From the NCBI GenBank assembly GCA_050084515.1, contig CM114271.1, positions 3,906,001 through 3,970,000 of the forward strand: DNA of 64,000 nt, given 5' to 3'. Source of the stretch: Blasia pusilla. Its lineage: Eukaryota. Positions within the stretch are counted from its first letter, which is position 1; each line of letters begins with the position of its first letter. Positions 1-61,771 of this stretch are shown here, in pieces. The notes beneath the pieces are model-generated. The model had not been told where the DNA came from, ran no database searches, and saw only the letters and a list, made by a program, of their open reading frames with translations. Position numbers and translations under genes: made by a program.

Positions 1-727
1 GCACCGCACGCTTGGCCTTGCTGTAGGCGAATCCCGGAAGATCCACAGGTAAGCTCATCAGCCCGACGTTGAAGAGATTGTAGTCATTCATGAATTGCTC
101 GCGCGCAGCGTCTTCCATATAAGGCCCCACGAACGCTGCCTGGGATGTCTCCAGGTTTAAATCACGCAACAGCAGTCTCATTTTTAAAGGCCCATCCTTG
201 GCCAGCTCGATCCAATTCGCTATATGCTTCCTGATTAGCTTCTCCTGAATGGCTACATACACCCCCAAAGCTTTGTAAGTGAAATTGGGGGCAAGCCGCC
301 TGCGCAAGTCCCGGTGGTAATCCCCGAACAGGAAGATGAGATTATCCTCACCGAACAGTTTCTTCCCGAACGGGTGGCCGATCAGCTGGAACACTTCCGG
401 TTTCACATTCGCGAAAATTTTCTGCGACAGCTCCGTATCTCTAACGAAAACAATGAACCTACCGAACAACACATTCCAAGACAAGCCGACCTTAGACGCA
501 GCCTTGGCCTGGTCGTTCCAGAACTTCGCTGGGTCTCGCACCATGCCAATCGCATCTCCCAAGAATGGCACTACCAACCACGGTCCGGGCAAGTGCTTCC
601 CCTTAAAAACGTAGGACAGTTGCTCGAACACTAACCACAACGCCACCACTACTCCCACGATCAGCTGCCATTCCATCCACGACTGGAATCCCCACCGTGC
701 AGTCCTGGTTTCTGTCGTCAATTCCAT
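1..727 (-). CDS. CYP710A: Cytochrome P450 CYP710 family, sterol C-22 desaturase (5' part; continues beyond window start)
   Basis: Manual translation from the ATG at 727: MELTTETRTARWGFQSWMEWQLIVGVVVALWLVFEQLSYVFKGKHLPGPWLVVPFLGDAIGMVRDPAKFWNDQ...LIGHPFGKKLFGEDNLIFLFGDYHRDLRRRLAPNFT...RDLNLETSQAAFVGPY...DYNLFNVGLMSLPVDLPGFAY. It has an N-terminal membrane anchor, a Pro-rich hinge and CYP710-typical blocks. Absent from the ORF track because there is no stop in the window. Confidence 0.92.
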   Translation of the reverse strand, partial: MELTTETRTARWGFQSWMEWQLIVGVVVALWLVFEQLSYVFKGKHLPGPWLVVPFLGDAIGMVRDPAKFWNDQAKAASKVGLSWNVLFGRFIVFVRDTELSQKIFANVKPEVFQLIGHPFGKKLFGEDNLIFLFGDYHRDLRRRLAPNFTYKALGVYVAIQEKLIRKHIANWIELAKDGPLKMRLLLRDLNLETSQAAFVGPYMEDAAREQFMNDYNLFNVGLMSLPVDLPGFAYSKAKRAV

Positions 728-9449: not shown

Positions 9450-10880
9450 AAGGAACATTGGAGAAGCGATTTTGAATGAAGGATAAGGTGTTATTTGCAA
9501 TGCTTTACATAATGAGCTTGATAGAATTGGCTTCAATATTCTCAAACCATTCTCTCCAAGGATATTTTTCATCGATGATCCAGATGGAACCAAAAACACA
9601 TGGCAGAAAGAAATTTTTATATAATATTCTTCTTGCAAGTGTATGAAGCGTAAGATGTATTGCTTTGGCAATGGTATCATCTGGAATAGCTTCTCAATTG
9701 TTAGACGGAGGACGTCAAACACATTCAAGCTTCAAGATTTTGGTCAACATTCATGAGAGTACTTCTTGCAAGTAAGCATTTTCTTATTCAAAATCCCAAT
9801 TTCTAAAATATTCATTTATATTTTTCATCCCTCTTAGTATAAGAAATTATAATTTACTTCCCTGTGTGATTTATAATTTATCAATCAATAGTGATGCAGC
9901 GTGCTTAGTCCGTGTTGCAATGCTTATTATATGGGATGAAGTACCTTTAACTCATCATCACGCGTTTGAGGCAATAAATCAATCTTTCCAAGATATTATA
10001 ACTGTGATCTCTTCGTATCTAAGGAAAATATCATTTGATGGAAAACTCAGGATATTTGGTGGTGACTTAGTTTTCATCAAGTGTCGCCTTTTATTTGTCA
10101 TGGAGATTGCATGGTTGCACGAAAGCGGACATGTCCTTCCATGGGACTAATATGCCCAACCGATCCCCTATCGGGGTTTTTTCAGCACCCAAGTGGCCCA
10201 TGTGGACTCATGATGCGAGAACAGCTACGGGCTCACATTAAGTGAGGCGGGCAGGAATTGGTCCGCACATAACCCGCATTCACCCGCGGAGAGTGGGCCT
10301 ATAGCGGGCTTAGAACGGGTCGGTGCGGGTTATAAAATGAGCGACTGGTCCTTAGACTGGGTGCGGGCTGGCTGAGCCCGAGTGTACGTTGCAGGTGGGG
10401 CGGGCTCAGGCTGCAAGTACCTACGTCCGCACATACATGGATATGTCTACAGACATGGTCTTTGTCCATGCGTAACCTTGGCAGATCGTCCACAAATTAT
10501 CCAAACCACTATAAAGAGATCATCCCTATGGTCAAATATTAAGATGATAAAGTTGACAAAATACATGTGAGTTCAAAGGTTTGAAGGTCATATGCGTGCT
10601 CAACAAGAAGCTTTTGCTAATTGGTTTTGGAGGTGGGAGAGAGTCGTCTACTTTTGTATCCTCATTTGGGAGAAAATTTTATACCAGTATGACATGAAAT
10701 GGTTTCTAGTAATAATAAGATATCTGATCTTATTGATCTATAGAAAATTTTCTTCTCCATTACATGACATCAACTTCTTGAGAGATATAACTATTTTGAC
10801 ACTAACAAATAGAGATGTCGATGTAATGTTTGTGATGCAATTTCTCGGAGGGATAATAGTTTATTGTAGTTTGCTATGAC
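9450..10880 (+). mobile_element. Decayed Helitron Rep/Hel PIF1-like helicase remnant
   Basis: Broken frames give IFFIDDPDGTK (degenerate FFIDGPGGTGKT Walker A), LIIWDEVPLTHHHAFEAINQSFQDI...FDGKLRIFGGD, and IKRSSLWSNIKMIKLTKYM. These are hallmark plant Helitron helicase motifs, with many stops and frameshifts. Confidence 0.8.
10110..10480. mobile_element. Non-autonomous hAT-like MITE inserted in the Helitron helicase remnant
   Basis: GC-rich 371 bp block with imperfect TIRs CATGGTTGCAC / GCGTAACCTTG and a degenerate 8-bp TSD ggagattg (10102-10109) / gcagatcg (10481-10488). Removing it rejoins the helicase sequence. Confidence 0.6.
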
Positions 10881-30231: not shown

Positions 30232-35383
<5,152 letters not shown>

Positions 35384-36249: not shown

Positions 36250-37301
36250 TCAACGAGCTACACAATTGATAGTTTGAAACAAATCTGACAAGAACACGAG
36301 TGGTTGGTAAGACGTGAATGGACGACGAGGCGAGCGATCCCCCACCACCTTCGCACGACGTATCAATGCCAATGCTTGTGCACGTTGTAAGGCCAATGAG
36401 ATGCATTGCCAAAAATAAGTAGTAACTACATAGAGAGAAGGACTACGGGAAGGGGCAAGGTGGTGTTTCTCGAGGGAGTGGTAAGCACATGTTTTCACAA
36501 AAGTATCAAAAGACAGATGTAAATGACCGAATACTTCCACTTCAAAAGGAATAAATCCATCAGTCACATGTCTCACAGCATAACTTAACTCCTTGATTCT
36601 TGCTACAGCTTCGGCCGCCATATCTTTGGTATGTGCGGCTCGACACACCAAGTCAGAACGTGTTGGATCCGCAACCACCACATCACCTAGTGTTCGGAAT
36701 CCACCTCGATACATAACAAGATCCACTCTCCGACGAGAGGTTGCTTGTGTGGTTGAAGGTAAGCCATGGAGTTGCTCTTGCCCAATGGTGTATCATGCAG
36801 TACGAGCCACCGATGCTACCGCCTCTCTAATGACATCATGTGTGGCCGTTTGTTCTCCACCATGTGCACATCGGAGAATATGGATACCCTTGGCATCAAT
36901 GGGATCCCTGCATACACAATTCGGCACACCTAATAGAGAAGGATGGGGAAGTCCAAGACGTAACCGCAATGTTGTCGAGAATATACTTTGAGAAAGACGA
37001 AATGGAAGAATAAGAGGATTTGCAATAAGCCATGCCCCCGCTACGGTACCCGCATATGAACGCAGACGAGCTCGATGAGCGTCAAAGGATGCCTTGGAGA
37101 GACTGCTGGAAAAGTTGATTTGATGCAGATTCTCAGAGATATGCTCTTGAAGTCGATCAAGCCCTTCCGCTTTGAAAGGGGGTAGAATTGCTTGTGTAGC
37201 AAGAGGAAGAAGAGCTCGTGCAGATCTCAATTGTTGTTGAAATAACAAGTCCCCCTACTCTACATGGGCGATATGATCCATCAAGATAGGTGTGTCTCCT
37301 T
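36250..37301 (-). mobile_element. 3' part of a non-LTR retrotransposon with a restriction-like endonuclease (CRE/R2-type), degenerate; cut off by the Gypsy element
   Basis: LRLRLGLP...CVC...HILRC...THDVIREAVA (CCHC finger plus RHD-like motif), then DLV...GDVVVADP...ARIKELSY...FIPFEVEVFG...ISLALQRAQA (PD-(D/E)xK RLE domain). There is an internal stop at ~36793. Confidence 0.8.
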
Positions 37302-37748
37302 TGTCACATCTGAGTAGCCGATAGGCCGAGATCTATCGTGCATAGGGCGTAGGAGCCAGCAGACTATCTTGAGTGTAACTTTGTCCCACGGTGTCGGATG
37401 AGGTTGAGCATAGGTCCATTATGTCAGGAACATCATTTTTGACAACTTTCATGTTGAGGTCTTTTACAACCGGGTGACTTGTTGACCAGGTCACCCGCCC
37501 CTCGTAACCTATACACGCAGGTTACCAAGGGGAGGGCTATTTTTAGGGGAAGAGCCTTTTGGCTCTTCCCAACCCTATATAAGAGAGGAAGATTGATTTC
37601 CTAAGCCATCTTTCTCATGTTGGGACGTTGGAGTACCTCCCTTGTATGTGTGTGAGATAAGACTAGGGTGCTAGCGTCCGGATTCCTTGATAGCACAGGG
37701 TGGATGAGGCTCGATATGCCGATGTAGATTGAGGAGTGGAGTTTTAGG
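37302..37748 (+). repeat. 5' LTR (portion shared with the 3' copy; true 3' end unresolved)
   Basis: tgtcacatctgagtagccgataggccgagatc...gaggagtggagttttagg is repeated at 45955-46398. It contains a TATA-like cctatatataag at ~37574. Confidence 0.85.
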
Positions 37749-38681
37749 GCGATAGAGCGCCCCCCGCATTTAGGGCCCAGGGGGGATAGGGCCGTGGGCC
37801 AAGTTCTCCCCTCCAACGTGGTAGGAGTGGATGTGGTGGAGTTGTAGCGGGGCGAACGCGGTTGCGCATGGGCAACGTGGTGGCAGGGAGGATGTCGACG
37901 TGGTGAGTGACCGACATAGTTGGACAGCATGCGTGACATGATGTTTTTGGGGCGCGACAGAGCGTTGTGAGAGTTGACGATGGAGGGGCAGTGCGCATGA
38001 TGCCAACGGGTTGTCCGCATCTGTTGACGGGAGGATCGACGTGTTGGTCGAGGGGAGTGTTATGTGGCGGAGATTGTCATATCATGTGGAGGAGTGCATA
38101 TTGACGGTGCAGCAGGTTGGAGGGCGTGATCAGATTATCCATTCGAGTCCCTTTTCCCGCACTTGTCGTGTGTGATTGAGAGTGCTGGGTATCGGGTAGT
38201 AGCCGGTGCTAGATGGGTGCAGTGATGGTGACGAGTGTAGATTCTTTTCATGTGTAGTATGTTGGTGGATATACGGCGGTTGCCGAGTAGGGGTCGCGTG
38301 TATGACCCGAGAGAGTGTCGCTAGGTTAGGTGAGTCAGTTGGGAGGCTCATGGTGAGCCCGAGTGTTGAGCCTGCGTGAGGCCGGGTATGTCATCACGGG
38401 ATTGATGTTAGCATAGGTGAGCTAGTGAGGCGTGTGGGAGACTCTCGGTGAGTGTGAGTGCTTGAGCGGGTGAGACAGGGTTTGTCATCAAGGCGTTCTT
38501 CCAGGGTTCGGAAGAACGGGGTAGTGCGAGCAGTAGTAGTGGTGTGACACGGAGTGGAGTGAGATACCGAGGGGTTACCAGTGAGGAGCTACCTCGACAT
38601 CCATCCGTGGTTGGATCGTCATCACTGGACACTGGGTCTGGTGACGAGATCACAGACAGAGACAGTAGTACTTGGCAGGAG

Positions 38682-39700
38682 ATGGACGACATGGGCCATC
38701 GGGGCATGCGTCGTTTCTCGGGTGCAATGGGCACCATCGACTTAGATGATTTCATCCAAGAGTTCGACACATGGTGCGACTTCTAAGAGATACGGACCGC
38801 GACACGGTTCAACCCTTTCATGGCATGGAAGGGGTTGTTCCAGCACTTGGAGGGTCCTCCGATGGATGATTACATGGAGTTTCGATCACTATATTCAGTA
38901 GAGATCGATGCTTGGAGGATGTATTGGGCTCCAGGGTATGTGTCCACTAGTGGTCACGAGGCATATGATGGGATTGTGAGAGGAGAGAGACCCACACCAT
39001 CAGCCCGGAGACTAGATGGAGAGGAGGGCAGTGACAGAGGCGATGTGGTAGAGACCTCTGGTGGTAGAGGGCCACCCAGTTTCAGCCCCACAGTGGAGTT
39101 CTTCCGACAATTGGGGAAGAGCTACCAAGGCGTACGCACCGACAAGCTGAAGAGTCTACAGGATTTTCAGCGACGATCGGGTGAGAGTCTGAGAGAGGCC
39201 TTCACACGCATGAGGAGGCTGATCATTGCTACATTTGGAGTGACAAAGGCGCAGTCAGTCCAGTATTGGTACGGGGTTCTGGACCGAGAACTACAGAGGA
39301 GAGTCCGAGATGCGGTGCTGATTCACACAGGGAAGCCCACATTGAAGGTGGTCTTTGAGTTGTCTGAGCGTATTGAGCTCAACATGAGTGAGCGGTAGTG
39401 ACCGCTGGATTTTTTCGAGAGTCGACGGGTCCCGAGCGGCGGTGACCCCACAGTGCACGCAATGAGCACGAGTACCACGGGAGCGGGCCAGTGTGCCTAG
39501 AGTTCAGGGCGGGTACCGTGAGCCTATGAGGCAACGACCCGCACCTACATATGTTGCCCAACAGGGACTGATGTGGTCTTGTTGGACGTGTGGAGGGGCC
39601 CATAGGCAGAGAGACTGCCCACAGCATGGGAGAGGACCATCAGCGCCTCCGATTGCTCAAGAGCCACAGAGGATGGCCCGACCACAGCACTAGTGTGACC
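38682..39700 (+). pseudogene. gag-like region with Zn knuckle
   Basis: MDDMGHRGMRRFSG...LDDFIQEFDTWC (stop) ...FQRRSGESLREAFTRMRRL..., then CWTCGGAHRQRDC. Confidence 0.75.
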
Positions 39701-39924
39701 ATTGCCACAGATATGGTCACACTAGGGATAGATGTGTTGACCTTCGCCGAGGGGCACGTCCAGAGGTAGGCCGAGGGCCTGGGGGCGGTCGTCATGGAGG
39801 AGGTCGGGGAGTTCTTCCTGGACATGGTGGTAGAGGACCACCACCAGCCAGAGGAGATGGAGCAGGAGCACCTGAGTCGGCCCTTCTCTCACGCATTGAT
39901 CAGTTGGAGTAGAGGATTGTTGCC

Positions 39925-41385
39925 ATGACGATGATGCAGCTTAGGGAAGGCACAGTGCTGCGAGCAGCTAGTGTGACTCCAGTCTCTACCTCTTACCCTG
40001 ACCCGGGTGAGGATCTCTCCAACATGGGATTTATGTGTAGTGCAGCCCAAGTTGAGGCAGCTGCAGTGGTGACTCGGGGTGCTGCGAGAGGCACCGAGCC
40101 ATCGAGAGGTGGAGTTGAGATTGACCCACCAGAGGGGACCGATGGGCGGCAGGCGAGGGTTCCACAGTCGTTCACATTTTCGGAGGCACTACACACACCA
40201 TCGATGGTGCCTCGACGACCAGCGGTGCCTACAGTTCACGCACCTACGTCGACGTCACGAGGAGTTGGAGTGACAACTCCTATACCGGCTCGAGTGGAGT
40301 CAATGTCGACCATAGTGTTGGAGGTGGCCACTAGAGTGAGTCAGACTCCGCTATTTTCCGCCTTAGAGTTGGCGACGTTGGGAGTGGGACCAGCTGAGGT
40401 GTTCCGGTTGGCCGCCACGTTGTGTGAGCGTGGAGAGATGACTGCTTCTTGTTCAGAGGTAGTTGAGGAGGTGGTGGACTTGCCCTCAGAGCCCGTGCTT
40501 GGGTCATTCCCCACAGAGTCATGGCATGCGGCGGCGGCGAAGTTGGTAGATATGCAAGCTCGACCGGCCATAGAGCGAGCAATGGTGACACCTGGAGTAG
40601 TGTTACTGGATAACCAAGTTGGAGTATTTCGCTTGGTTAGTCCGACGGGGACAGTATACCACCCGCAGCGCGTCCTACTTGATTCGGGAGCGCAACCCTT
40701 GATGTTAGGGAAGGCGGCGTGTTTAGCGTTGGGGTTACGGAAGGCCGACATTGAGCCTTGTCCCTTCCAGATACAGACCTCGATTGGGGGCGTATCACCC
40801 ACTCAGTATATGACTCGACAGGAGATTGTTGTGAGAGTCCAGCCAGAGCATGCGACGGATAGTGCTATGGTGCACACACGTGCGATTACGACACCACTTG
40901 AGTCGTACGATGTGTTGATGGGGAGTACAGTGTTATATCCCCTAGGATTCATCCTTGACTTCTGGGAGGAGACCGTTGCTTATCGGCCAGGATGGCGGTC
41001 AGGTGACGGTCGGATGAGTCAGTTACCCGTGCAGTTTGCGGGACGAGGTGGTCGATCACGAGGCGAGTCTGTGACCACGTTGGCGGCTTTCACAGGTAGT
41101 GTTAGCTGGCCAGGAGAGTTGTTGGAGGGGAACGCACATGCGGAGGATGTCCCAGTAGTGGATAGTCCCACGGAGAGACAGGCCATGGCGGGTGTCTCTT
41201 CCCATGTTAGCGATGCCTCTTCACCATTATGGGGTACGACTCGAGAGCTACAGAGGAGTGTCGACGACCTCGTGAGGCAGGCGTGGAGTCATGTTTTTAT
41301 CCCAGAGCAGCGAGAGTCACGTGGCGATCAAGCTCTTGGAGTGGAGACGATGACCCCACTAGATACCACACCTGTTGTGTGGTAG
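39925..41385 (+). pseudogene. Retrotransposon aspartic protease-containing segment
   Basis: VLLDSGAQPLML and YDVLMG motifs. In the same frame as the DNMT ORF, separated only by TAG at 41383-41385. Confidence 0.8.
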
Positions 41386-42340
41386 TGCCCAGAGGAGGGT
41401 GTTAGGGTGTTAGATCTCTTTGGAGGGATTAGCACCGGATTGGCTGCAGTATTGCAGGCGGGCATACGGGTGCATCAGTACCTTTATGTGGAGAGAGATG
41501 AGACCCCGCGGCGAGTATCATTACGTCACGTGGCGAGATTGGTCCAGAGGTATCCTAAGTTGTTGTCGGTATCTGCAGTACGGGGATACCAGCATACGCT
41601 ACCTGTCGACATATCTTTGGTGGGAGCGCAGGATCTTGATAGAGTTGGCACCATTGATTTGGTGATTCCTGGATGGCCATGTCAGGGTCATTCATCAGCT
41701 GGCCGAGGATTTGGATTGCAGGATCCGAGATCAGGGATGTTTTGGGAGATGCTGCGAGTAGTACGACACTTGCAGGAGAGTCAGATATGTTCTCTTGCGT
41801 ACATTTTGGAGAACGTGCCGTTGTTGGGAGATACTCGTGCACGTGTGATGATGAGTGTACATCACGTGAGGTCCTGGTTGGGACCAGCTGTGTTGTTAGA
41901 TGCAGCGAGAGTTGGGTCACGTGCCCATCGTCCACGACTGTGGTGGACGAACCTGATACCATCAGAGGTACTGAGTCAAGCCTACAGTGGAGTCCAGAGA
42001 GCACCACATCTCACGGTGGATGCTATTTTGGACTCAAGGCGTCGATCTCAGGTGGTGACACGCGATGATAGACCACCATTGGCCACGGCCAATAGGGTGG
42101 GGGAGTTGAGGGCAGCCTTACCTACGTTGGTGAGCTTCCCAGCATCCGATGCCTTTCGTCAGGGAGGGCTAGGTATGATTTGGGATGAGGTGACCGGAGT
42201 ATTGGAGGAGCCTACAGCAGATGAGCGCGAGCGCGCCATGGGGTTCACTACCGGTACTACGGCGGTGCCAGGGATGACTGAGGCATCACGGAGACAGGTG
42301 TTGGGGCAGGCGATGGACCTCAACTGTCTCACATGGATAG
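41386..42340 (+). CDS. C5 cytosine DNA methyltransferase domain, DNMT3-like, within the retrotransposon polyprotein
   Basis: Motif I VLDLFGGISTG, II YVERDE, IV IDLVIPGWPCQGHS (catalytic PC), VI YILENV, VIII RAHRPRLWWTNL, IX ERERAMGF, X RRQVLGQAM. The order is non-permuted and there is no internal stop. Confidence 0.9.
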
Positions 42341-42699
42341 TCAGCCTAGGTATGGCTGAGCAGAGACGGATGCGAGTGTCATCCATGCCGTCACGTCCAC
42401 GAGTTGGACCATTGCCTACATGGTCTGTACAGGCATTGGATGGGAGCGAGACGAGGAGAGATAGGCACCCATGGACTTCCTGGGACATCGTTCGAGCAGA
42501 GAGTGCGAAGGCGGCTAGAGTAGCACATGTTCATTTTTCAGATGTGGAGCATGCTGTAGGAGGTCAGAGTGGAGTGGAGTGGCTGTTGCGGAGGTGGCTA
42601 GGGTTGCTACATACCAACCAAAGCCGGAGGTTGCGTCCTCTCCAAGTGAGGTCACGATGGAGACTTCGGAGCCTGTGATAGGTCTCAAGTTGATAAGAG

Positions 42700-44100
42700 G
42701 AGAGCGACGGAGAGTTCATAGGTTTCTAAGAGGGCATGTCAGTTGTTTTGCCTTCAGTATGAGAGACTTGGGTACGCTGAAGAGTCCCGAGATACGGATT
42801 GAGTTGGCTAGTGATACGCGGATCTTTCGTCAACCCTACAGGTATTCTGATATGGAACGAGCCTTGATTCAGAGCAGGATTCAGGACTTGTTGGAGGCAG
42901 GACTTGTGGAGTTATCACATGGGGAGTATGCATCTGCCACAGTCATGCCGGAGAAGAAGGATATGTATGGCAATTGGACGGATAGGTGGATGTGTGGAGA
43001 TTACCGTCCTATCAACCGACAGACGAGGTCAGATCAGTATGCCATGCCTACTCCTAAGGAGATCTTTGATGCGGTAGGGCATGCAAAGATCTTCAGTACT
43101 TTAGATCTCCGTGCTGGCTATCATCAGCTTCCTATAAGGTTGGAGGACAGGGAGAAGACATCATTCTGGGGGATAGATCGGTTCGGGAGAGATTGCTTGT
43201 ATCAGTGGCGGTTCTTACCATTTGGGTTGAAGAATGCGCTCACGGAGTTGTGGAGTTTCAGAGAGTGATGGATAGGATTACGGCTGGCTTGGATTTTGTG
43301 CGATGTTACATAGATGATATTCTTATCTTGATTCCACGGTTGAGGAGCATGAGCGACACTTGGAGGAGGTGTTTCAGCGATTGCAGTTACATGGACTGAA
43401 GTTACATCAAGGCAAGTGCAGATTCTTTCAGGAGCAGATTGAGTACTTGGGACATACCATATACCCAAGTGGGTTAGGCGTTCAGCAGACGAAGGTAGAG
43501 GCTATTGCGCAGATTCCACGCCCTACAGATGTGAGTCGAGTCTGAGCATTTCTTGGACTGGCGAACTTCTATCGACGGTATGTCAAGGGTTTTAGTGCGA
43601 TCGCAAAGTCTTTCACCTTGTTGACGAGACTTGATCAGGTGTGGTTGTGGGGAGATGATCAGGAGCGAGTATTTGAGGAGCTCAAGGACAGGTTGACGTC
43701 CTCACCCATTTTACAGAGACCGGTTAGGGGTTGCCCATTCCAGTTACATACGGATTGGAGCATGTTGGGTCTAGGAGCAATTCTTACTCAGAGGGATGAC
43801 GAGGAGAGGGAGTTCGTTGTGGCTTACGCGAGCCAATCAAACAACATTGCAGAGGCGAAGTACAGCTCCTACGAGGGAGAGTGCTTGGCTGCAGTGTGGG
43901 CCGTGGCACATTTTAGGTGCTATTTATTTGGCAACCCTTTCACACTTATCACTGATCATCAGCCGTTGAGGTGGTTGATGGAGTCCGACAAGCTTACGGG
44001 AAAGCTTGCCAGGTGGGCTCTATTACTATAGGAGTATGAGTTTGAGGTGGTTCATAGGCCAGGTTGGCTGAACCAGGATGCGGATGGGTTGAGTCGTAAC
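42700..44100 (+). pseudogene. Gypsy reverse transcriptase and RNase H (frameshifted)
   Basis: RQPYRYS, MCGDYRPIN, FSTLDLRAGYHQ, LPFGLKNA, CYIDDILI, IEYLGH; RNase H LHTDWSMLGLGAIL, YSSYEGECLAAVW, ITDHQPL. Confidence 0.93.
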
Positions 44101-44299
44101 CCATGTCCGAGTCAGAGAGACGACACAAGAGCTTGATGGCACGGAGAGAGTGATGAGGAGATGGTGCCCGGTTGGCATGCATCTGCCTATCTTTGTTGGT
44201 TGACTATGGCAGGTCTGCCACAGGTGATGACTCTTGTGGTGGGAATGGATGATGAGTCTTTGGATCCGGAGGTTAGTGAGAAGGCGACAGGTGGTCGTG

Positions 44300-45560
44300 A
44301 TATCCATGACGACGTGGAGGTTGTGGACTTCTTGCGCACTGGCGTCATTGCGAGTATAGTGAGTGCTAGGGAGCGGGATCGGATCCTACAGAGAGCCAAG
44401 AGGTTCAGGTGGGAGGGGACTCACATTTTGCGGGTATGGGGACATGGTAGGATACGAGTGGTACCTCATCCTTCCCAGCGAGCACGTGTAGTGCGACATG
44501 CCTATGAGGAGTTGGGACATTTCGGAGTAAAGCGTACTTACAGCTTACTCCTGGTTTAGTATTGGTGGCACGGCATGCATGCTGGGGTACAGCACTTTGT
44601 GGCCAGATGTATGGTATGTGACAGAGTGCGAGCATCCTTCAATGCTCCCACTCCGCAGTTACATCCTTTTCCGATTATGGGTTTAGGTTATCGGTGGAGT
44701 TTAGACTTCGCGGGACCTTTGCCATTGTGAGCGTCATCATAGCGTCGTGTCGGTCATGGTGGAGCATTTCTCCAAGTGGATAGAGTTGGTGTCACTACCA
44801 GACAATGCGAGCAAGGGAACAACTTATGCGTTTCTAGATCGTGTGCTTAGTCACTTTGGTGCACCGGCGGAGGTGTTCACTGACCAGGGTACCGAGTTCA
44901 GGGGAGAGTTTCAGGCCTTGTGTGATCAGGCGCTGATAGATCACCGCACCACATTCAGGGATCATCCTGAGGCGGATGGATTGGCAGAGAGAGTGGTACA
45001 GACGGTGAAGAGAGGATTGCGCAAGTATGGCTTGCAGGGGACGATTGAGGGAGTGGGACCTCGATTTGCCATGGTTGGCTATGGGTTATCGCTTTAGTCG
45101 GCATGCATCCTTGGCGTCATTTTCACCATACTTTTTGCTCTTTGGGAGAGAGCCAGATTTACCTGCAGCGATTCGACGTGACATGGCGGAGGTGTTAGAT
45201 CTTGATGATCCAGATGTGTGGGTGCAAGCATGTTCTCAGAGGGCAGAAGTTTTTTGTAGAGTTATGCCTATGGCCTTTGAGAACTTAGCTATTGCCCAGC
45301 ATAGAGATACATTGAGGTACGTGACCATTCGTGGAGGAGGTTATCGTCCAGGGATTAGGAGGTTTCATCCTGGACATTACGTGTATTTATAGCAGGCGGC
45401 ACCCACGACGCTAGATGTCACTACAGGGCGCACGATCCTACGTGTGCGCGAGGTATTACCGACCGGAGTCCTCATGTTGGAGGGACGAGATGGTATGGTT
45501 TGGAAGGATCATGTGCGCAATTGTGCGCCATGTCATCTTCCGAACGTAGATGGGACGGTG
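44300..45560 (+). pseudogene. Gypsy integrase (disrupted)
   Basis: LGHFG...CMVC Zn-binding region; DDE core WSLDFAGP / VFTDQGTEF / DGLAERVVQT; SPYFLLFGREP. Confidence 0.9.
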
Positions 45561-45596
45561 GATCCGAGCTTGGCAATGGTACCTGCAGGCTTGAGG

Positions 45597-45736
45597 TGTA
45601 TGTTGTGCGGATCTGCGAGGGGTGCAGCCACCATGTTGGTATGTGATGGTTGTTCTCGAGGGTGGCATATGTCATGTCTCGACCCCCTCTTGATGTTGTT
45701 CCCATGGGACGATGGATATGTCCGAGATGTGTATAG
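45597..45736 (+). pseudogene. PHD finger at the polyprotein C-terminus (one frameshift)
   Basis: CMLCGSARGAATMLVCDGCSRGWHMSCLDP, frameshift, then DVVPMGRWICPRCV* gives a complete C4HC3. Confidence 0.88.
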
Positions 45737-45954
45737 GGTAGTAGGTCATGTCAGAGAGATGTGATATTTTCTATCTGGAGTTAGGGGGATCCAACTGCCA
45801 CCTAGGGGGGCGGTTGTGTGATCTCCATGTATATGTATGAGTTCATTTTTGTACATGTGTGGATCGACCCGTGTGTGGGGAAGATCGGTGTTGTGTGGTG
45901 TAGATGTGACAAGCGATGTATGTTGTGTAGCGATATGTATGCGCACGGCATATT

Positions 45955-46398
45955 TGTCACATCTGAGTAGCCGATAGGCCGAGATCTATCGTGGATAGGC
46001 GTAGGAGCCAACGGACTATCTTGAGTGTAACTTTGTCCCACAAAGTGTCGGATGAAGTTGAGGATAGGTCCATTGTGTCGTGAACGTCATTTCGGCGACT
46101 TTCATGTTGAGGTCTTTTGGCCGTGTGACTTGTTGACGAGGTCACTGCCCAGTAACTGTGTCTGCGCGTGAGTTACCAAGGGAAGGGCTATTTTTAGGAG
46201 AAGAGCCTTTTGGCTCTTCCCAACCTATATAAGAGAGGAAGATGGCTTTCCTAAGCCATCTTTCTCATGTTGGGCCGTTGGAGCACCTCTCTTGTATGTG
46301 TGTGAGCTAGGACTAGGGTGCTAGCGTCCGGATTCCTTGATAGCACAGGGTGGACGAGGCTCGATATGCCGATGTAGATTGAGGAGTGGAGTTTTAGG
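45955..46398 (+). repeat. 3' LTR copy (truncated by rearrangement)
   Basis: Matches 37302-37748 with visible substitutions and indels. Confidence 0.85.
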
Positions 46399-47340
46399 CC
46401 GGGTGTGCCGTTTTTACTCCAAACATGTACTTCCTCATTTGACAAATGGAGATAGATGTGCACGTTGTCGTGCGCATACATATCGCTACACAACATACAT
46501 CGCTCGTCACATCTACACCATACAACACTGATCTTCCCCTCACACGGGCCGGGTGTGTCGTTTCTTCCCCACACACGGGTGTGCCATATCGCAACCCATG
46601 TCGTCCATCTCTTGCCAAGTACTACTGTCTCTGTCGGTGATATTGTCACTAGACCCAGTGTCCAGTGATGACGATCCAGTCACGGATGGATGTCGAGGGA
46701 GCTCCTCACTGGTAACCCCTCGGTATCTCACTACACTCCGTATCACACCACTACCACTGCTCGCACTACCCCGTTCTTCCGAACCCTGGAAGAACGCCGT
46801 GATGACAAACCTTGTCTCACCCGCTCAAGCACTCAGACTCACCGAGAGTCTCCCACACGCCTCACTAGCTCACCTATGCTAACGTCAATCCCGTGATGAC
46901 ATACCCGGCCTCACGCACGCTCAACACTCGGGCTCACCATGAGCCTCCCAACTGACTCACCTAACCTAGCCTAAACCACTCGGGTATATGGTGTGTCCCA
47001 AGTACTCAATCTGCTCTTGAAAGAATCTGCACTTGCTTGGATGTAACTTCAGTCCATGTAACTGCAATCGTCGAAACACCTCCTCCAAGTGTCGCTCATG
47101 CTCCTCAACCGTGGAATTGAAGATAAGAATATCATCTATGTAACATCGTACAAAATCCAAGCCAGCCAGAATCCTATCCATCACTCTCTGAAACTCCGCA
47201 GGCGCGTGTGTGGGGAAGATCGGTGTTGTGTGGTGTAGATGTGACGAGCGATGTATGTTGTGTAGCGATATGTATGCGCACGACAACGTGCACATCTATC
47301 TCCATTTGTCAAATGAAGAAGTACATGGTTGGAGGAAAAA
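46399..47340. mobile_element. Rearranged mosaic of fragments of the same retrotransposon family, bounded by a ~136 bp inverted repeat
   Basis: 46411-46546 is the reverse complement of 47205-47340. ~46595-46970 is the reverse complement of ~38320-38695. ~46968-47202 is the reverse complement of RT ~43250-43480. Confidence 0.85.
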
Positions 47341-49390: not shown

Positions 49391-52300
49391 TGTCACGACC
49401 CTCATAACCTAACGAGCGTCAAGCGGAACATCCGAACTCTAGCGAGCTCACGCTAGGATGGTTTGCGCGTTGGAGTGATCTCTTGGAAGAGACACAAGAG
49501 ATGAGACATGAACAATGATGAGCATTTCATGCATTTATGGTCGTAACAAAAAAACCTTGACCAAAATTGAACCAAGACTAGAGAGGAGTTGAGTCTAGGA
49601 AGGTTGGTTTCCAAAGAGGTGAGAACCGAATTTGGAACGTGACTAGCGTTTGGGGTTTTGACTATATTTGTGACCACAACTGTTAGTTCCAAGTTGTATT
49701 TGAGAAAATTGAGATGGCATTGGAAAGATTATGCAAATTTGGTTCCAATGCACCAAAGATCTCAGCAAACGCACAAGCAAAGAGTGAGATATTGGCCGAA
49801 AATGACTATATGGGTTGTCAAATTGAGGGCCAAAAAGAGGGGCATGAGTGCTCCTTCCCCAAAGGTAAGGGGAGGGCTGAGATACCTACAAGTACTACTA
49901 AGGGGGAAGGTCTCTAAGAGTGCTTGCGACTCGAACCCCACTTTGGGGCACCATAGATTCCAACCAACGACTCGTTTAGTTGGGTCTCATTTTGGGGGCT
50001 CATGTGAGGTCCATTGGACAATAGCTAGGGCACAAACGCCGCTTTAGGTGCCTGGAATAACCTGGAAGTTTCTCCCAAGTCTTGAAAGACTTGCGCGTGT
50101 TGGAAATTTAGGAACTAGGGAAGGTTGATCTTGATGAGGTGCCGAGTTGAGAACTCGGTCGGTTGGAAGGCCGATTGATCCATGCAAGACTAACGTGAGT
50201 GTGTTTGGGTGCAAATTGGCAATGAGAGTGTGTCCTACTGAACGTACACTTTCGCAACACTAAAGATTGACGTTGAAGAGGAGTAGGCGCATGACACATG
50301 GTATCAGACCTAATCCTTGGTGAGCAAGAACCTGAGGTCGTAGGAGCAAGTGGACGCTTGGGGAGAACTCAAGGTAGTAGTGAGGCCTAGACCATCGGGG
50401 AGGGACGGAAGAGACAAGGAGAAGATCTGAAGAGGCAAGTGCTTGAAGATGGAAATCAAGGGCAAAGAACCAAGAAGCGTCGAGTCAAGCGACAAAATCC
50501 GAGAGACAAACTGATGCCAAACCAAGAGCCAGAGGAGGAGACGCTGGTTTTCAAGGTGCCGAGCTCCAGTCATTGAGAATATCCCACATAAGAATCCTTC
50601 CACTGAGCCTTCGACTCTAAACTCAAGTGACCTGGCACTCTATATCCAAATGATGGACTTGATGAAGTTGATGAATGAGTAGATAGCTTAGGATACTAAG
50701 TGGATTGTTGAGCTCGAGTGGAACAGAGCTTCTAGCTCCGGCAAGAAGCTTTATAAGACAAATATTCCAACGCCATTTATGGGAATGTGGCAATTTCAAA
50801 AGGTGAAAAATTCCTGACGGAGGTGGAACTTTACTTTGAGGCACAGAGGGCAAAAGAGCAAGCCAAGGTGACCATGGCGGTCATGTTCCTAAAGGATCAC
50901 CCACTCGAGTAGTGGATGGCTCATCGCAAAGAACATCTAGGCCGTGGAACATCTATGAGTTGGGAGGAGTTCTAGGTGTTGATTGGCAACCGATTCATTC
51001 CAAAGTTTCAGGAGTTTTGTGATAGTGTGAAGTTCGTACGCTTGTGGCAGAGTGGGTCCCTTAGCGCTCATATGTCGGGGTTCTATGCAAAAATGAACTC
51101 GCTTCCCAAGATGGATGAGTTTACAAAGAAGGTGATCTTCTTTAGTGGACTTAAGCCTACTGCATAAAAGGCTCTCTTCCGGATGCTAGAGCTACTGAAG
51201 ACGTGTGTTGAACTTTTGAAGCTGGCAGAGGGGATAGGGGACGATGAGGTCCAAGTCCAGAGACCCTTGGAGCATAAAAGTTTTTATAAGTTATCGAAAA
51301 ACAAGGGGGCATCCAAGAGGGTCTCTTACCCCTGCAGCGAAACGAGTGGAACTCCACGCGAAGCCAAAGGGAGCGCAGCATCCAAAGGCAAGAAATGACA
51401 AGGTGACATGCTACAATTTTGGGGAACTAGGGCACATTGCAAAGAGATGCTCAAAGCCAAAGGTTAGTAATTGGAGTATGATTGTGTTTTCTGCTAAGCA
51501 CTTATCGGCGGGAGGTCTAGAGATGTCCCTTCAAGTCACCAAGAGGACGCCCAATTTGGTATATGTAAGATCCAATATCTCTGATCGTGATGTGATGTTG
51601 TTCGTTGATACAAGTGCTTTGCACTCCTTCTTGAGTCTGAGAATTATGAAGGAGTTGGGTTTGTCAACCACTAAGGCGGACAAGCCCATTTGGGTAGGCT
51701 TTGCTAGAGGCAAGTCTCGCTGAACTTCTGAGATTGGTTCCATGACTAACATGTGGATGCGGAGTATTTGAGTTGAAGGAGAATTTCAGTGTGTGCGAGA
51801 TGGACAGAATCAATCGAGTCTTGGGAACACATTCTTGGATGTGTATGAGGTGGAGCTATGACAAAGTCTATTGAGGTTGAGCGTCTTAGTGAAAGGAAAA
51901 TGGTTGCAGGCGAGGTTGGTTCATAAGGTTCATTTGAAAAAGGAGTTGGTGAACGCTATTATAAGGAGGAGTTTGACCAAGCTAGAAGATGGGTCTCTCT
52001 GCTTGATGAGACAAGTAGAGGAGACTACAACCAAGAGACGCGGAGATCATGACTCAACTTCGAGGGGAATCCCATACTTGCTCCAGAGAGTAATAAAGGA
52101 ATTTGGTGATGTCTTAACGAATGAGCTTGCAAATGAGTTGCCACCACATAGGGCAATCGATCATAAGATACATGTCATCCCTGGGTCTCAACCACCTTGA
52201 AAGGTCCCGTATAAATTGAATCATGAGGAACTTGTTGAGTTGAAAAATCGGTTTAGTGAGCTCTAAGAGAAGGGCTACATCAGAACTAGCAAGTCATCGT

Positions 52301-52750
52301 ATGGAACGCCCATTCTCTTTGTGAAGAAGAAGGATGGGAAAATGAGACTCTGTGTTGATTACCCTACGTTGAATAACGTGACGGTGAGGAACAATTCCCC
52401 TTTTCCGAGGATCGATGATCTCTCCGATAGATTGTAAGGGGCGAAGTACTTCAATAGGATTGATTTGAAGTCATGATATTACCATATTCGGATTGCCGAA
52501 GGTTCATGAACTCCATTTTTCACGAGGAGACGGATGAGTATATGATCATCTACATCAATGATATGCTAATCCATTTGGAGTCACTAGAAGAGCACGCTCA
52601 ACATCTGAGAGCGGTGTTGTCGAAACTAAGGGCAAACAAGTTGTATGCGAATGTGGATAAGAGTGAGTTTGGGTTGCACAAGATCTAGTTCTTTGATTAT
52701 GTGGTTAACACAGATGGAGCTAGACCAGATATGGATAAGGTGAAAGTTTT
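49391..52750 (+). mobile_element. Second, truncated Ty3/Gypsy element (LTR, tRNA-Met PBS, gag, protease, partial RT)
   Basis: LTR TGTCA...TGACA at 49391-50296, PBS tggtatcaga at 50299, degenerate knuckle CYNFGELGHIAKRC, FVDTSA protease, and [18 protein letters not shown] and IYIND RT. Heavily disrupted, with no DNMT seen. Confidence 0.88.
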
Positions 52751-52944
52751 CATGCACATACACATCGCTGTCACCGAATGCACATACAAACACACACGAT
52801 CCCATGCTAACTCATGGAATTCACACAACGAGACAATAAGTACCAAAATATCTCCAATGGAATCCTCCAAGAGAGAGAGTTTGAGAGCTCATTATCTCTT
52901 TGTAAATTTCATGGATCTCTCCATGACAAGGTCTCACAAATATG

Positions 52945-56538: not shown

Positions 56539-59500
56539 CTAATCACACTTGATATTTCTATAGATTCTTCTAATAAAAGTTGACGAGCCAAGGTAGCCCA
56601 CAGCACCTGCACACACAATTGTACTTCATTAGAGACCAGCAGAAATAAAACCACCTATACAGATCCTCCTTCAAGGATTAGCAAGACAAACTTACACCTA
56701 GGAGTGTTAGGAGTTCCACTATCTGTATAGCTGCTCAGAGTGCCCACCCACTCACTCCTCCATTTCACTCGCCCACACACAAGAACACATGACTTGCTCT
56801 GCATATGAACCTCCCTAAAACTAGCTAGAAATGTGAAAATCTTGCTGAAAACAAGTAGGCAACCTTCATCATGGTCCTAGTTTGTTTTACCAAGGTAATT
56901 GCATCACTCACCACAAAGTATTCCTAGTCCAATACAGAACATGGCTGTGTAGCCGAAGTAGAAACTTGTTTGGAAGAACCCAGACATCTTCGTCTTCATG
57001 AAGTAGTAATATATGGAGTACAAGTACACATAAGCAGCTGTAGATGCAGCAGAGAAGAAAGATGTCCATTGCCAGTGGTAGTTTTCTGCATTCAGTAAAA
57101 AGTATGTCCCGACTATGGTGACACAGACCGTGACTATAACCAGAATTAAGAAGACCAAGAGCATGAACCCATACACATAGTATACCTGTACAATACAATA
57201 AAACAATTGCAAATCAGAGCACGATACCCAACTTTAGGAAAGAGAACATAAAGCATAAAAACATGGACACAAATATTTGCAATGAATTCATGACGCTACA
57301 AACTCTCCAGAATAGCAAAGAAGATACACCAGGAACAACATTCTCCAGCACAGTCCCAATCTCACAATTCCAAACCCGTGAACTGGCAATTTGGAGAAAT
57401 ACTTTACCTTGTAATTCCAAAAAGATGTGAAGACAAAGTACATCTCTATGAAGATGCTTCCAAAGGGCAGCAGCCCACCCATCAACGCAACCACTGAGGG
57501 TGTGAGATACCACTTCTTTTCAGGAATTGGTCTGGGGATAGTCTTTACTCTACAAGGATTGTCAGGTACTCCACTCCAGTTCCTTCCGACCACAGTTCCA
57601 AGAAGAGCTAGGGGGAAGGAAATGAATGCCCAGATGACCAAAACCACCACCTGAACAAGACAACCGAGACTTCTGGGTGAGATCTGAGAATATCTTTAAG
57701 TGTACATATCTTAATCACGGACTTCCTACTTTCAAGAGAAATAACCATATGACATATGACGAATTTTCAGCCGTACTCATCTGATATAAAATTGATACTG
57801 CCATTGCTCATTGTAAAGAAAAACATGCAAACATCATGTACCATTGTTCCAAAAGGAATGGCTGCCAGAGAATGGTAGAAAATGGCCACAGTGTTCAGAA
57901 GAAAGCCTATTCCGAAACAGGTAAAAGGAAACAATGATGCAGTGAGAAGCATCGACTTGATCCAGTGCTTGCCTGCACAGGCACGACAACAGAAATCAAG
58001 ATCCAGTTCACTGTGAATGGATCAAAGCAACACAAATTGAGGCACCAACATAAAAACAATTCAGTGCTAAACCTCCTCATTTAACTCATCCAGTTACATA
58101 ATTACTTGAGAGTAATTTACCATAGGATGGTTGAAACTAGCTTTCAGGGTCTTCAGAAACCAAGTCTTGGGTAACAGAGCTGGGATGATTCAAGAGAAGG
58201 GACTGTACCATCATTACGCGAATAGAAACCTCCACTGACATATCCAGCAATGAACGATGTAAGTGCGTAGCAAACAATGAAGGTTGTCACAATAGCTCCA
58301 CGCCTGCAATACACACATTCTCACGATGAGCAAATAAGTCCTTTGGAGTGTTTCCACAAGAACAGACAAAATCTAGAATATGACCAGTCACAAGTCAGTA
58401 CTATAATCCACAAATACACTGGCAGCACCATGTTGTAATACACTTCAACATACAAGCCATACATGTCTATTACCAGAGATCATTTTCTCTCAGAGAAGTA
58501 AATAGCCACAATATGTTAGGCACACTGATTGGACATACCCGACATATAACATGCCTATGATGGCAAAGAGAATAACCAAGAGGACTAGCATCGCTAGCTG
58601 CACGCCAGTCCCCACCAGTGCTGACAGGAGAACCAGATTGCGAGGAGACCGAAAAACATCTCCATGGACCAACTTCCATCCTGATTCTTCACTGACATCT
58701 CTCTCCTGCAATTCACCAAGGTGGGTATCAGAAAGCCCAATTTCAGTGAGCACTCTACTAGAGCTCACATCAAAGTAAATATAAATTAGTGTGACTACCA
58801 AGGTAAAATATCTGACTAACAAGAGGATTCAAAAAAATATCAACCTCCAACCCCACTCCAGCAAATATGTGTTTGTGCAAAGTAAGGACATATTTGCCAG
58901 CAGAGCCATTCTAATTCAGAATCGATGATTTACTGAATCCATAAGTAAAGACAGAAGGAGATGATGAACAGTGTATCTTGACCCGAGTACTATGAATCAG
59001 ATGGCGGTAACCTCTAGAGGTTGTAAATTGCTTTCCGGTCACAAGCCCTCAACTATGCATCCACTTCCAGAAGTACTGCAGATGAATTGGAAGGCATAAA
59101 ACTTTCCAGTGACACTGGACATCACAAGCACGTTTTGCTGTAGTCAAGGATGTTACTGACACTGGGCACATTTGCAATTGCAATTTCCATATGGTGATTA
59201 TGGATCATGGTTTGGATCAAAACTCACCAATGTCTCCAAGTCATCTTCCTCCCTGGCGTACTTGGCATAGTCATTTCGTAAAGTGCGCATGAGGATCATG
59301 GAAACAAGTCCAGTCAAGAAAATGACCATCATGAACGAGTTGAAGATGGAAAACCAATGGATCTGCAATACGGAATATACCATTGTCAGAATGGTAAAAC
59401 CACAAGCAAAGCAAAAAGTCATACATAGCAAATCCATGTTCCAAGAGTTCAATCCATCTCTAACCATATCTCATTCCCCAATGCAAGAAGTGAAAATACC

Positions 59501-61771
59501 TGATGCTCAAAGAATATATAGTCCAAGTAGGCATCAAACCGCCTTGCAAAAGAAGTATTGACCTCCACCCATTTTACTGAGTAGGTCAGCTCCAAAGCCC
59601 TTCCAGGTACAATAGGCTGAGGATTATCTTGAGTGAGATTCACTTGTATGATCTGAAAGAAAGCAATCCATGGTTTATCACCCAAGTCCCTACAAATGAA
59701 ATCACTGAAATAGTCATAAATGTGCGGGCTCAAAATTCATGGAATTTTCCACCTCCACATGAGGTATACCTGATCATTGTTGTACTTCACCACAAAGTTC
59801 TTGTGAGTATAAAGCAAAGCTTTGTTCTCATCCTTCTTATCATTGTGAACTTCTCCGACAAACCCTGTGACAACAAAGGTGTGAGTTTTCCACATTACAG
59901 AGGACCAACCCTTCACATTGCCACATACTCACAAATTTGACTCTCCAAGAGTTTGAAATCTATGCCTGTTACTGTGAAAATAAAGTCCTGCATAAACCTT
60001 AAACTGGGTAGTGGGAGAGTCCGTATCACATACCCCACAGAGGCAGGTCGTCTGAACTTGACAGCAAGATTGTACAGCATAACATGCCACCAAAAAGAGC
60101 AAGTAAGATGCAAACCGAAAGATAAAGGAGTAAATTATAATAATACCAGAGAACTGTGCATTGCAGAACTTGACAGCAAGATTGTATAGCACAACATGCC
60201 ACCAAGAAGAGCAAGTAAGATGTAAACCAAAAGATAAACGAGTATGGTATAACAATAACAGAGAAGTGTGCATTTCAAAACGAAATGGACTATGTTGGGA
60301 GTGAGAAGCGAAATTGACAAAATTGGAAGAGGCGCTTGATTTGGTGACATATTAGAACCCAAGTCCTTTGGATGAGAGAAGCGCACCCATAAAGAACTCA
60401 AACCAGTAAGTATTCTCAATAGCTTCTTTGAACTCTTTGGCATCCTCAAGTTTTAACTCCTCCACCTTACAAATGACGCTCTTCTCGATTGGGACTGCAG
60501 ATGATACAAGTAGCGCCAGGGTAAATTCTGTGAATCTTTCATGTTGAAAGCAATACCACCCGCACATTCTTTGAGCTATAATACAATGGTGAACTAATCA
60601 TCCGGACACCAAAAGTCACATAGAATTCGAAGTCCGGCCAAGTAAGACCGTCCCTGACTTTTCTAGCATCAATCTGAAGAACAAACTAGAACAGAACAAC
60701 TTGAATGTAAAATGCAGAGAATTTTTCTACAATGAAAATCACAATGGGTGTAAAGCATTCACTGTAGCTGGTCTCCAAATAGGATCTGCTTGAAGGAGAA
60801 GAGCACGTACTTTTGAACTTGATGTCAATCTCACTGTCTATGAGTTCATTACCCTCCAAAACTTCCCCAAGCCCTCCCCATTTGTGACTGGGTTCCTTCG
60901 TACTGGGCTTGCAAAAGGGCAGGCTGTAGTAGTTGTATGTTTCTTGAGGATTGTTGTACGGACCGACTTTGTTCACCCAAAGTGTGACGACGTCACCATC
61001 TGCATACTGCTCCAACAGACGAATGGAACCAACACAAGTCAGGACCGCAAAAGACAAGACCTCTACTCAACTTTGAGAGTCGGAGTATCCCACAAGAAGG
61101 CAGGCCTGCTGCCAGATCTACCTATTCGAATCAATATCTTAACAGTAAAGCCCAACGCACAAAGGCGAGAGATCACGACTTGGTGGGCGGGGTCGCAAAT
61201 GCGTGTGATTTGACAAGAACCCAAATGCACTACATTCCGAATTTCTTCCAAAGAAGTCAACAAACTTGGAGCAATTGACCAGATGGGATCTGCCAGCGAA
61301 ATTCGTGGTGACGAAGATATTGGAAGTCAAGCAAACGCTAGTACGAAACAAAAAGAAAGGCCGTAGAGAACAGGGCCCGAGAATAACGGCGCCCAGTCAC
61401 ATGGGCTGGGAGACTGCCTCACAAAGTCAGGACGCAGAAAATGCAGATCTCAAGAAACAAAATATTCTCTGACAGAAAGCTTTGGAAGAAAGCCTCAGAA
61501 TCTCGTATTCGCTAACCCCAGAAAGATCGCATTGGTAACGCTTGCCCGAAGGCATATCGAAGTGCCTCTCTTGTGCATTTAAAAAAATGAAAAATAATAA
61601 ACGCTGCGTGGCTCGAAGAACCAAAGACAAGCTCGTAATACAGACGGAAATCTTCTCAGGAAGTTCGATACGCACCTTGTGATCGTACTCCGTGGCACTA
61701 CACGAACTAAGAAACAGCACTAGAGTGACACAAACGGTCTGCCAAACCACTGCTCTCGTTATTTCCCGCAT
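56539..61771 (-). CDS. TMN1: Transmembrane 9 superfamily / endomembrane protein 70 (TMN1, TM9SF3-like), multi-exon
   Basis: Signal peptide [32 protein letters not shown], then [81 protein letters not shown] and [10 protein letters not shown]. The C-terminus is IYRNIKCD* (KxD/E Golgi retention motif). Confidence 0.96.
60054..60244. repeat. Intronic direct repeat (~79 bp, spacing ~112 bp) in TMN1
   Basis: gaacttgacagcaagattgta.agca.aacatgccacca..agagcaagtaagatg occurs twice. Confidence 0.85.

Follow-up and report, generated by a model that had tools for sequence, protein, structure and literature searches.

A PHD finger at the integrase C-terminus of a decayed Ty3/gypsy element with a DNMT3-like domain in Blasia pusilla

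The element and its interrupted PHD finger

The window, meaning the whole stretch of 64,000 nucleotides analysed here, carries a Ty3/gypsy element at approximately 37300-47340 with the order gag-PR-DNMT3-like-RT-RNaseH-IN-PHD. Pfam recognizes, in this order on the plus strand, DNA_methylase (ORF 41386-42678), RVT_1, RT_RNaseH, Integrase_H2C2 (weak; 19.6 bits, below its cut-off), rve, and PHD. The Ty3/gypsy assignment follows from the PR-RT-RNaseH-IN order and the presence of an integrase C-terminal module. The coding region was traced by tblastn with Marchantia and metagenome polyproteins as queries, and both of its frames were covered.

The first frame, gag-PR-DNMT, occupies 38682-42579 and contains one frame break and an in-frame stop. 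It begins with a gag-like part (38682..39392, plus strand), matched in frame 3 by residues 1-238 of the Marchantia protein P0076 at 58% identity. The remainder (39484..42579, plus strand) encodes the protease and the DNMT3-like domain and is interrupted by the in-frame TAG at 41383-85. The aspartic protease motif LLDSGA (40675-40692, plus strand) lies in the ORF preceding the DNMT. The DNMT3-like motifs on the same strand are FGGISTG (from 41416), PCQ (41671-94), ENV (from 41809), and ERERAMGF (from 42223). Pfam DNA_methylase matches this part with an E-value of 6.1e-10 and no other Pfam family is found there; its PDB matches are led by DNMT3A/B/C (E 9e-10), with plant DRM2 next.

The second frame, RT-RNaseH-IN-PHD, extends over 42651-45736 on the plus strand and is broken near 43245, 43335, 44728, and 45035 as well as within the PHD finger. 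Reverse transcriptase (42651..43330; RVT_1, E 5.7e-7) is recovered by tblastn in frames 3, 2, and 1 and contains the breaks near 43245 and 43335. It is followed by RNase H (43546..44031; RT_RNaseH, E 1.3e-32) and by the zinc-binding part and catalytic core of integrase (44137..45097; rve, E 5.1e-12), which contain the breaks near 44728 and 45035. A GPY/F-type integrase C-terminal module ending in NCAPCHLPN (45291..45575) aligns without gaps to residues 881-975 of P0008 and is interrupted by a TAG at 45390-92. No chromodomain (Pfam Chromo) is present in the window ORFs, in the precomputed Pfam lists of the 71 related proteins described below, or in 25 scanned polyproteins.

Directly 3' of this module, and in the integrase frame, lies a C4HC3 PHD finger (45597..45736, plus strand), whose first Cys codon is 45597-45599 (CMLC). 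Its frame is that of the integrase C-terminal ORF 45009-45392, with the lone TAG at 45390-92 between the two. The translation of ORF 45393-45764 is CMLCGSARGAATMLVCDGCSRGWHMSCLDP and includes the first half of the finger. In this frame the finger reads ...LRCMLCGSARGAATMLVCDGCSRGWHMSCLDP, after which the pattern is lost. The second half, PPLDVVPMGRWICPRCV followed by the TAG stop at 45734-36, is readable only from 45680 in a different frame. The break inside the finger is the C run at 45683-87. Pfam PHD (PF00628) matches ORF 45393-45764 with 28.8 bits (cut-off 24; E 1.3e-6) over profile positions 1-30 of 47; in the relatives, the full profile is matched with 26-50 bits. The initial annotation had described a full C4HC3 finger here. 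All eight zinc ligands are indeed present and the Pfam score exceeds the cut-off, but the ligands are divided between two frames, the last two Cys lying in the other frame past the C run, and no single frame of the window copy holds the complete C4HC3. We confirmed that the window encodes a genuine PHD finger, broken in this copy.

Because of its frame breaks and in-frame stops, the copy is dead. Contigs from another organism's run show length differences at three of the break sites (44727, 45036, and 45680-82), and a contig end in a further run has a different length of the C run in the finger. The breaks therefore belong to the window copy and not to the family. In one RNA run, 83 reads fell on 43200-45800; 81 of them were only 95-99% alike, and the minus strand carried most of the first mates. 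Low-level transcription of some near relatives follows from these reads, which say nothing on the window copy. Among 40 listed differences between 43200-45800 and other copies, 22 are T/A here for C/G elsewhere and four are the opposite; of 12 T sites, five are followed by G and four by AG. Such an excess is what deamination of methylated cytosines in CG and CHG contexts would be expected to leave. The GC skew of 38000-46000 is strongly positive in comparison with the flanks (+0.20 to +0.27; G 33%, C 20%).

The coding region is bordered by repeats. A direct repeat, A, is present on the left (37300..37751, plus strand) and on the right (45953..46401, plus strand), the two copies being 89% identical. 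A short repeat, B, has its first copy at 45865..45950 and its terminal copy, detected by self-BLAST, at 47201..47340 (both plus strand; 45865..45950 is 98% identical to 47205-47285). The layout is A-coding-B-A-B, disrupted by an inverted block between the right A and the terminal B (46411..47200, minus strand; self-BLAST, 93-96% identity). This block consists of reverse-complemented pieces of B (46411-46551), of 38320-38695 (at 46595-46970), and of 43249-43479 (at 46969-47200), and resembles a rearrangement of the foldback type that involves the element's own sequence. Within the region 46411-47340, the block is flanked by inverted repeats of 140 bases. A clean A-coding-B-A-B layout occurs in two of three related metagenome loci (L031 and L053) and was not found in the third (L036). 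The A repeats begin with TG and do not end with CA, and around the element neither a primer-binding site nor a target-site duplication was recognized.

Integrase-PHD fusion and its pairing with DNMT among relatives

Relatives were searched with the 251-residue translation of integrase and PHD, in which X was placed at the stop. The search returned 71 longer proteins (best E 3.5e-117), and the precomputed Pfam lists give PF00628 for 59 of them, so the finger is not a product of chance. The relatives belong to liverworts, a moss, and green algae; those with a named source are from Marchantia polymorpha (77% identity), Calypogeia fissa, Volvox, and Tetraselmis, and a cluster look-up added Hariotina reticulata. 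A look-up of P0017 in the Protein Atlas returned generic gypsy clusters only (best score 0.89). By pattern search, a complete C4HC3 stands beside the integrase C-terminal module in 61 of the 71 proteins; five of the remaining ten are too short to judge and five lack the strict pattern, with P0033 and P0070 among these visibly degenerate. In uninterrupted relatives, such as P0008, P0010, and P0017, the PHD is in frame with integrase, and the initial annotation would have been contradicted had it been out of frame in intact copies. The finger follows the GPY/F-type module at the very place where chromoviruses carry their chromodomain, as the initial annotation had stated. These comparisons show the PHD to be a conserved, in-frame C-terminal extension of integrase throughout the lineage, and the fusion is old.

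Many relatives extend beyond the finger. A C-terminal extension of 245-450 residues with no Pfam family follows the PHD in P0034, P0037, P0040, P0041, P0046-P0050, P0052, P0053, P0056, P0057, P0059-P0062, P0064, and P0065; where the architecture is known, these are of the type called B below. The type-B polyprotein P0058 has a G-patch domain between DNMT and integrase (residues 1158-1199; E 6e-6).

A search with the DNMT part found 54 proteins, including many 'hypothetical proteins' of Marchantia polymorpha (up to 72% identity) and one protein of Sphagnum fallax. Of the 20 with an integrase core, 16 list PF00628. Many annotated 'hypothetical proteins' of Marchantia polymorpha (e.g., Mp_7g09570, Mp_4g09160, and Mp_8g17980; P0006, P0076, P0078-P0088, P0097, P0100, and P0101) are fragments of the family of the window element. 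Transposon fragments that pass for PHD or DNMT 'genes' in Marchantia could inflate counts of host chromatin genes.

Metagenome contigs were scanned by means of an alignment of the integrase-PHD proteins. Both search patterns lay in integrase, outside PHD and DNMT. From the 506 stretches that were confirmed, the best 80 loci (L001-L080) were retained. Since these are the closest 80 of 506, the counts describe the lineage of the window element and not all gypsy elements. In this set of the best 80, a PHD homolog directly follows the integrase module in all 67 loci with at least 250 bases there; 64 of these loci cover most of the finger and 29 have an uninterrupted C4HC3. A DNMT is present in 37 of the 39 loci of the same set with at least 3.3 kb upstream of integrase, L035 and L067 being those with no DNMT. 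In 24 of the 37, the DNMT precedes RT as in the window (type A); in 11 it lies between RNase H and integrase (type B), giving the order RT-RH-DNMT-IN-PHD with DNMT, integrase, and PHD contiguous; two are internally deleted. Both PHD and DNMT are found in 30 of the 31 loci assessable for both. The check on co-occurrence that the initial annotation had called for thus came out in favor of pairing at each level, in these loci and in the integrase-bearing DNMT relatives with PF00628. Where Pfam missed the DNMT (P0050, P0054, P0055, P0057, and P0065), phmmer with the window DNMT as query recovered it. In the Tetraselmis protein P0068, no DNMT is detectable in the 1012 residues that precede RT; this protein has a C4HC3 after integrase by pattern, and no Pfam PHD is listed for it.

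In a quick maximum likelihood tree of integrase with 71 rows, all type-A and short-linker proteins fall on one side (38 rows, SH-aLRT 93). The type-B proteins fall elsewhere, in a group of 26 rows with a support of 94 and a weakly supported group of seven rows. As types A and B separate in this tree, the position of the DNMT tracks integrase phylogeny. Either a single capture followed by a move or two captures could have given the two positions. Relatives showing alternative DNMT positions are P0017, P0058, and P0103-P0126. The near-obligate pairing of PHD with DNMT and the two positions of the latter are a modestly new point at the level of the family: a gypsy lineage that bears DNMT3 carries a second chromatin module, the integrase PHD, almost without exception.

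Type of PHD finger

The fingers of a Marchantia protein and a Volvox protein were compared with the PDB by phmmer, and 60 of 90 and 60 of 81 matches were listed, respectively. Among the matches listed are CHD4 PHD1/2, PHF12, DPF2/3 PHD2, ATXR5, PHD1 of KDM5A/B and Lid, and PHF21A/BHC80, with E-values down to 4e-16. KMT2C/D, BAZ2A/B, WSTF, UHRF1, AIRE, and ORC1b are also among them. Neither ING, BPTF, nor TAF3 occurs among the PDB matches listed for the two queries (60 of 90 and 60 of 81), and no DNMT3 or ATRX ADD chain is among those listed for the finger. These matches mark the finger as a canonical PHD, of the CHD4/KDM5/BAZ2/DPF type and unlike the ADD domain of DNMT3. The entry titles state unmodified H3 tails for the structures of BAZ2A, ATXR5, and UHRF1. 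Other matched entries (BHC80, KDM5 PHD1, CHD4, and AIRE) we take to be readers of the unmodified H3 tail as well. The expectation that fingers of this kind read the H3 tail found support in this respect: BAZ2A, ATXR5, and UHRF1, whose structures contain unmodified H3 tails, are among the closest solved relatives.

A structural model was made by AlphaFold for a natural relative, P0133 (281 residues, 45 aligned sequences), and not for the window copy. Its mean pLDDT is 72, with values of 80-88 across the finger, and its integrase part matches the PFV and Ty3 integrases. The finger of the model has the PHD fold, superposing on solved PHD fingers at 0.6-1.3 Å. The values are 0.6 Å for DPF3 (48 columns, 42% identity), 0.9 Å for the ATXR5-H3 complex, 1.1 Å for BHC80, 1.2 Å for UHRF1, and 1.3 Å for BAZ2A with an unmodified H3K4 peptide. 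Among the matches listed, the finger appears nearer to those solved with unmodified H3 peptides than to the aromatic-cage readers of K4me3.

In 75 fingers of the family, the Trp two residues before Cys7 is found in all 75, the Asp after Cys3 in 73, the aromatic residue before His in 70, and Met-Leu-Leu before Cys3 in 44. The conserved Trp, the Asp, and the Met-Leu-Leu strand presumably form the groove for the H3 tail. The deep conservation of the ligand and groove residues, at an overall identity of 40-50%, argues for a function. At the depth of close copies, dN/dS gives no clear sign of purifying selection on the PHD: the median is 0.57 for its 45 codons in 41 non-independent pairs, and 0.08 for 100 codons upstream of it in eight pairs. 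The value for the PHD is uninformative, since close pairs mostly record the neutral decay of dead copies after insertion.

Acidic residues of the first loop contact K4 in readers of the K4me0 type. The first loop of the window finger, GSARGAAT, has none. An acidic residue is also absent from the first loop of 10 of the 27 fingers in the clan of the window element, where a neutral or basic loop is frequent; among type-B fingers, 17 of 23 contain at least two D/E in it. Since the first loop of the window's clan often lacks acidic residues, a preference of this clan for a methylation state of K4 is unreadable from its sequence.

Possible roles of the finger and comparison with known elements

Gypsy elements bearing DNMT3 were published in 2018 from Klebsormidium nitens (KnitGypsy-Dnmt3; de Mendoza et al., PMC5890265). 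They are described there as having the repeat structure of DIRS elements with gypsy-like domains, and the legend of Fig. 1e gives the DIRS layout as A-coding-B-A-B. The name 'streptophyte Gypsy-DNMT3' is used in a 2026 preprint (bioRxiv 10.64898/2026.05.21.726589). As far as these descriptions go, the window element resembles KnitGypsy-Dnmt3 in its set of gypsy domains, in the DNMT3-related catalytic domain that its polyprotein contains, and in the A-coding-B-A-B layout, which is clean in L031 and L053 and disrupted in the window. Unlike the K. nitens element, it has its closest named proteins in Marchantia polymorpha (72-77% identity), which suggests a liverwort-like host. No sequence named as K. 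nitens was among the relatives recovered with the integrase-PHD and DNMT queries or by the cluster look-up. Matched to the published elements by description, the window element is a new, dead member of the Gypsy-DNMT3 family; that the combination of gypsy and DNMT3 belongs to a published family had escaped the initial annotation. The word 'PHD' is absent from the main text and three supplements of PMC5890265, and 'KnitGypsy' and 'Marchantia' are absent from the three supplements.

In chromoviruses, a chromodomain is located at the integrase C-terminus (PMC3605345), and the role proposed for it is chromatin-guided integration (PMC3605345; Gao et al. 2008, cited in PMC6673714). As described, chromoviruses share with the window family a domain of the histone-reader type fused past the integrase C-terminal module. 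They differ in that the domain here is a PHD instead of a chromodomain, and the likely mark is the unmodified H3 tail rather than H3K9me. EpiLTRs combine a chromodomain, a DAM, and a DNMT in one LTR element (bioRxiv 10.64898/2026.05.21.726589), and so also unite a histone-reader-type domain with a DNA methyltransferase in one LTR retrotransposon. According to the part of the preprint that describes them, they differ from the window family in that their reader is a chromodomain, their DNMT is sister to DNMT4 and lies at the 3' end (Cymbomonas), and they carry an adenine methyltransferase too.

PHD fingers also occur in other transposons of the green lineage, where, like the window finger, they form an accessory chromatin domain in a retrotransposon. 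REM1, reportedly described by Perez-Alegre in 2005, is said to be a PHD-bearing retrotransposon, and CR1 LINEs with a PHD were reportedly noted by Kapitonov and Jurka in 2003. PHD fingers in retrotransposons have been called widespread (PMC6673714), and the PHD has been called a common accessory domain of Chlamydomonas transposons (PMC8557442). Gypsy-7a_cRei of Chlamydomonas has a PHD in its polyprotein, at a position that the legend of Fig. 6 leaves unstated (PMC9940879), and fusions of PHDs with transposable elements in general have been surveyed (bioRxiv 10.1101/2021.11.30.470311). Unlike these elements as described in the text available, the window family has its finger paired with a DNMT and placed after the integrase of a DNMT3-bearing lineage. 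Our literature search, which covered texts and part of the supplements, found neither a text with a PHD after the integrase of a DNMT3-bearing lineage nor a report of near-obligate co-occurrence of PHD and DNMT or of two DNMT positions.

We favor the explanation in which the finger tethers integrase to chromatin, as the chromodomain may do in chromoviruses, and the DNMT is a separate tool, in what is now a dead, multiply frame-broken Ty3/gypsy-type retrotransposon of the Gypsy-DNMT3 kind. This explanation as a whole has in our judgment about an even chance of being right. In active copies, the finger would tether the integrase-cDNA complex to nucleosomes whose H3 is unmethylated at K4, and insertions would then be biased away from active promoters with methylated H3K4. 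The logic would be that of the chromovirus chromodomain with a different mark, and histone-guided integration, as suggested in the initial annotation, is plausible. The DNMT3-like domain would act separately by methylating the element's own DNA, as proposed for the Gypsy-DNMT3 family. PHD and DNMT would then be two chromatin tools inherited together, and their pairing would not amount to a single physical reader-writer enzyme.

The finger might instead serve the DNMT, as an ADD-like reader that brings the DNMT3-like domain to H3K4-unmethylated chromatin or activates it there, so that new copies or their flanks become methylated. The ADD domain shares the specificity for unmodified H3 (K4me0), some of the solved PHDs nearest to the finger have unmodified H3 tails in their structures, and PHD and DNMT occur together in 30 of 31 loci and, by Pfam, in 16 of 20 integrase-bearing DNMT relatives. 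In type B, reader-writer coupling is possible, since the adjacent DNMT, integrase, and PHD could form a single mature protein. Such coupling is less natural in type A, as the two domains occupy different frames at opposite ends of pol: in the window, the DNMT is part of the upstream gag-PR-DNMT frame and the PHD stands at the far end of the RT-RH-IN frame, with RT, RNase H, and integrase between them, and the two need not share one mature protein. No ADD-domain chain is among the PDB matches listed, and P0068 of Tetraselmis has a finger (by pattern only) and no detectable DNMT in its 1012 pre-RT residues. We consider service to the DNMT an unlikely explanation. The parallel with animal DNMT3 that had been drawn at first is weak for the window architecture. 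Common to both is the idea of joining an H3K4me0 reader to DNMT3 catalysis, and both the co-occurrence and the nearness to H3-type fingers favor the parallel; it remains an analogy, however, with a canonical PHD that is fused to integrase rather than to the DNMT and lies far from the DNMT in type A.

Some PHD fingers bind non-histone partners, and the finger, rather than reading histones, might be a zinc module that serves a host chromatin protein, nuclear import, or assembly of the intasome. The window's clan, in which the first loop often lacks acidic residues, would suit such a module, and PHF12 PHD2 is among the best sequence matches. On the other hand, nearly every member retains the Trp before Cys7, the Asp after Cys3, and the Met-Leu-Leu strand, and the model superposes at 0.6-1.3 Å on fingers of which some were solved with H3 peptides; we consider a non-histone module quite improbable. 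An accidental Cys/His pattern, or a host exon captured by the window copy only, would fit a finger split by a frame break in a dead copy. We rejected it as having next to no chance, given the Pfam match above the cut-off, the 71 relatives (E to 3.5e-117) with the finger in the same place, and its presence in 67 of 67 assessable loci.

A more far-reaching reading can also be considered. An old gypsy clade of the green lineage may have kept an H3-reading PHD and a DNMT3 through at least two domain orders as a transposon counterpart of ADD-DNMT3, in which docking of the intasome on H3K4-unmethylated nucleosomes would be followed by marking of the new copy by the element's own DNMT. We put this forward as a speculative and rather doubtful reading. 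If it is true, a retrotransposon chooses and then writes its own chromatin state. Retrotransposons with chromatin tools of their own illustrate the negotiation between mobile DNA and host silencing, and the integrase PHD opens integration targeting to concrete tests in bryophytes and green algae, where knowledge of it is scant.

The host-gene exons on the flanks of the element place it between genes and not in a transposon desert. They are a weak P450 match just under the Pfam cut-off (2-859, minus strand), a GATase+SIS (GFAT-like) gene approximately 2.3 kb from the left repeat (32461-34953, minus strand), and an EMP70/TM9SF gene (57291-61066, minus strand). At this distance from the GFAT-like gene, the window copy is not in obvious heterochromatin, and as one insertion it proves nothing either way. 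A second, unrelated, and degraded retroelement is present at 51238-52862 (plus strand), with a weak gag-asp_proteas match and an RT 24-31% similar to that of the family. A PIF1-like helicase fragment (9776-10147, plus strand; E 2.9e-10) in an AT-rich stretch may be a Helitron remnant.
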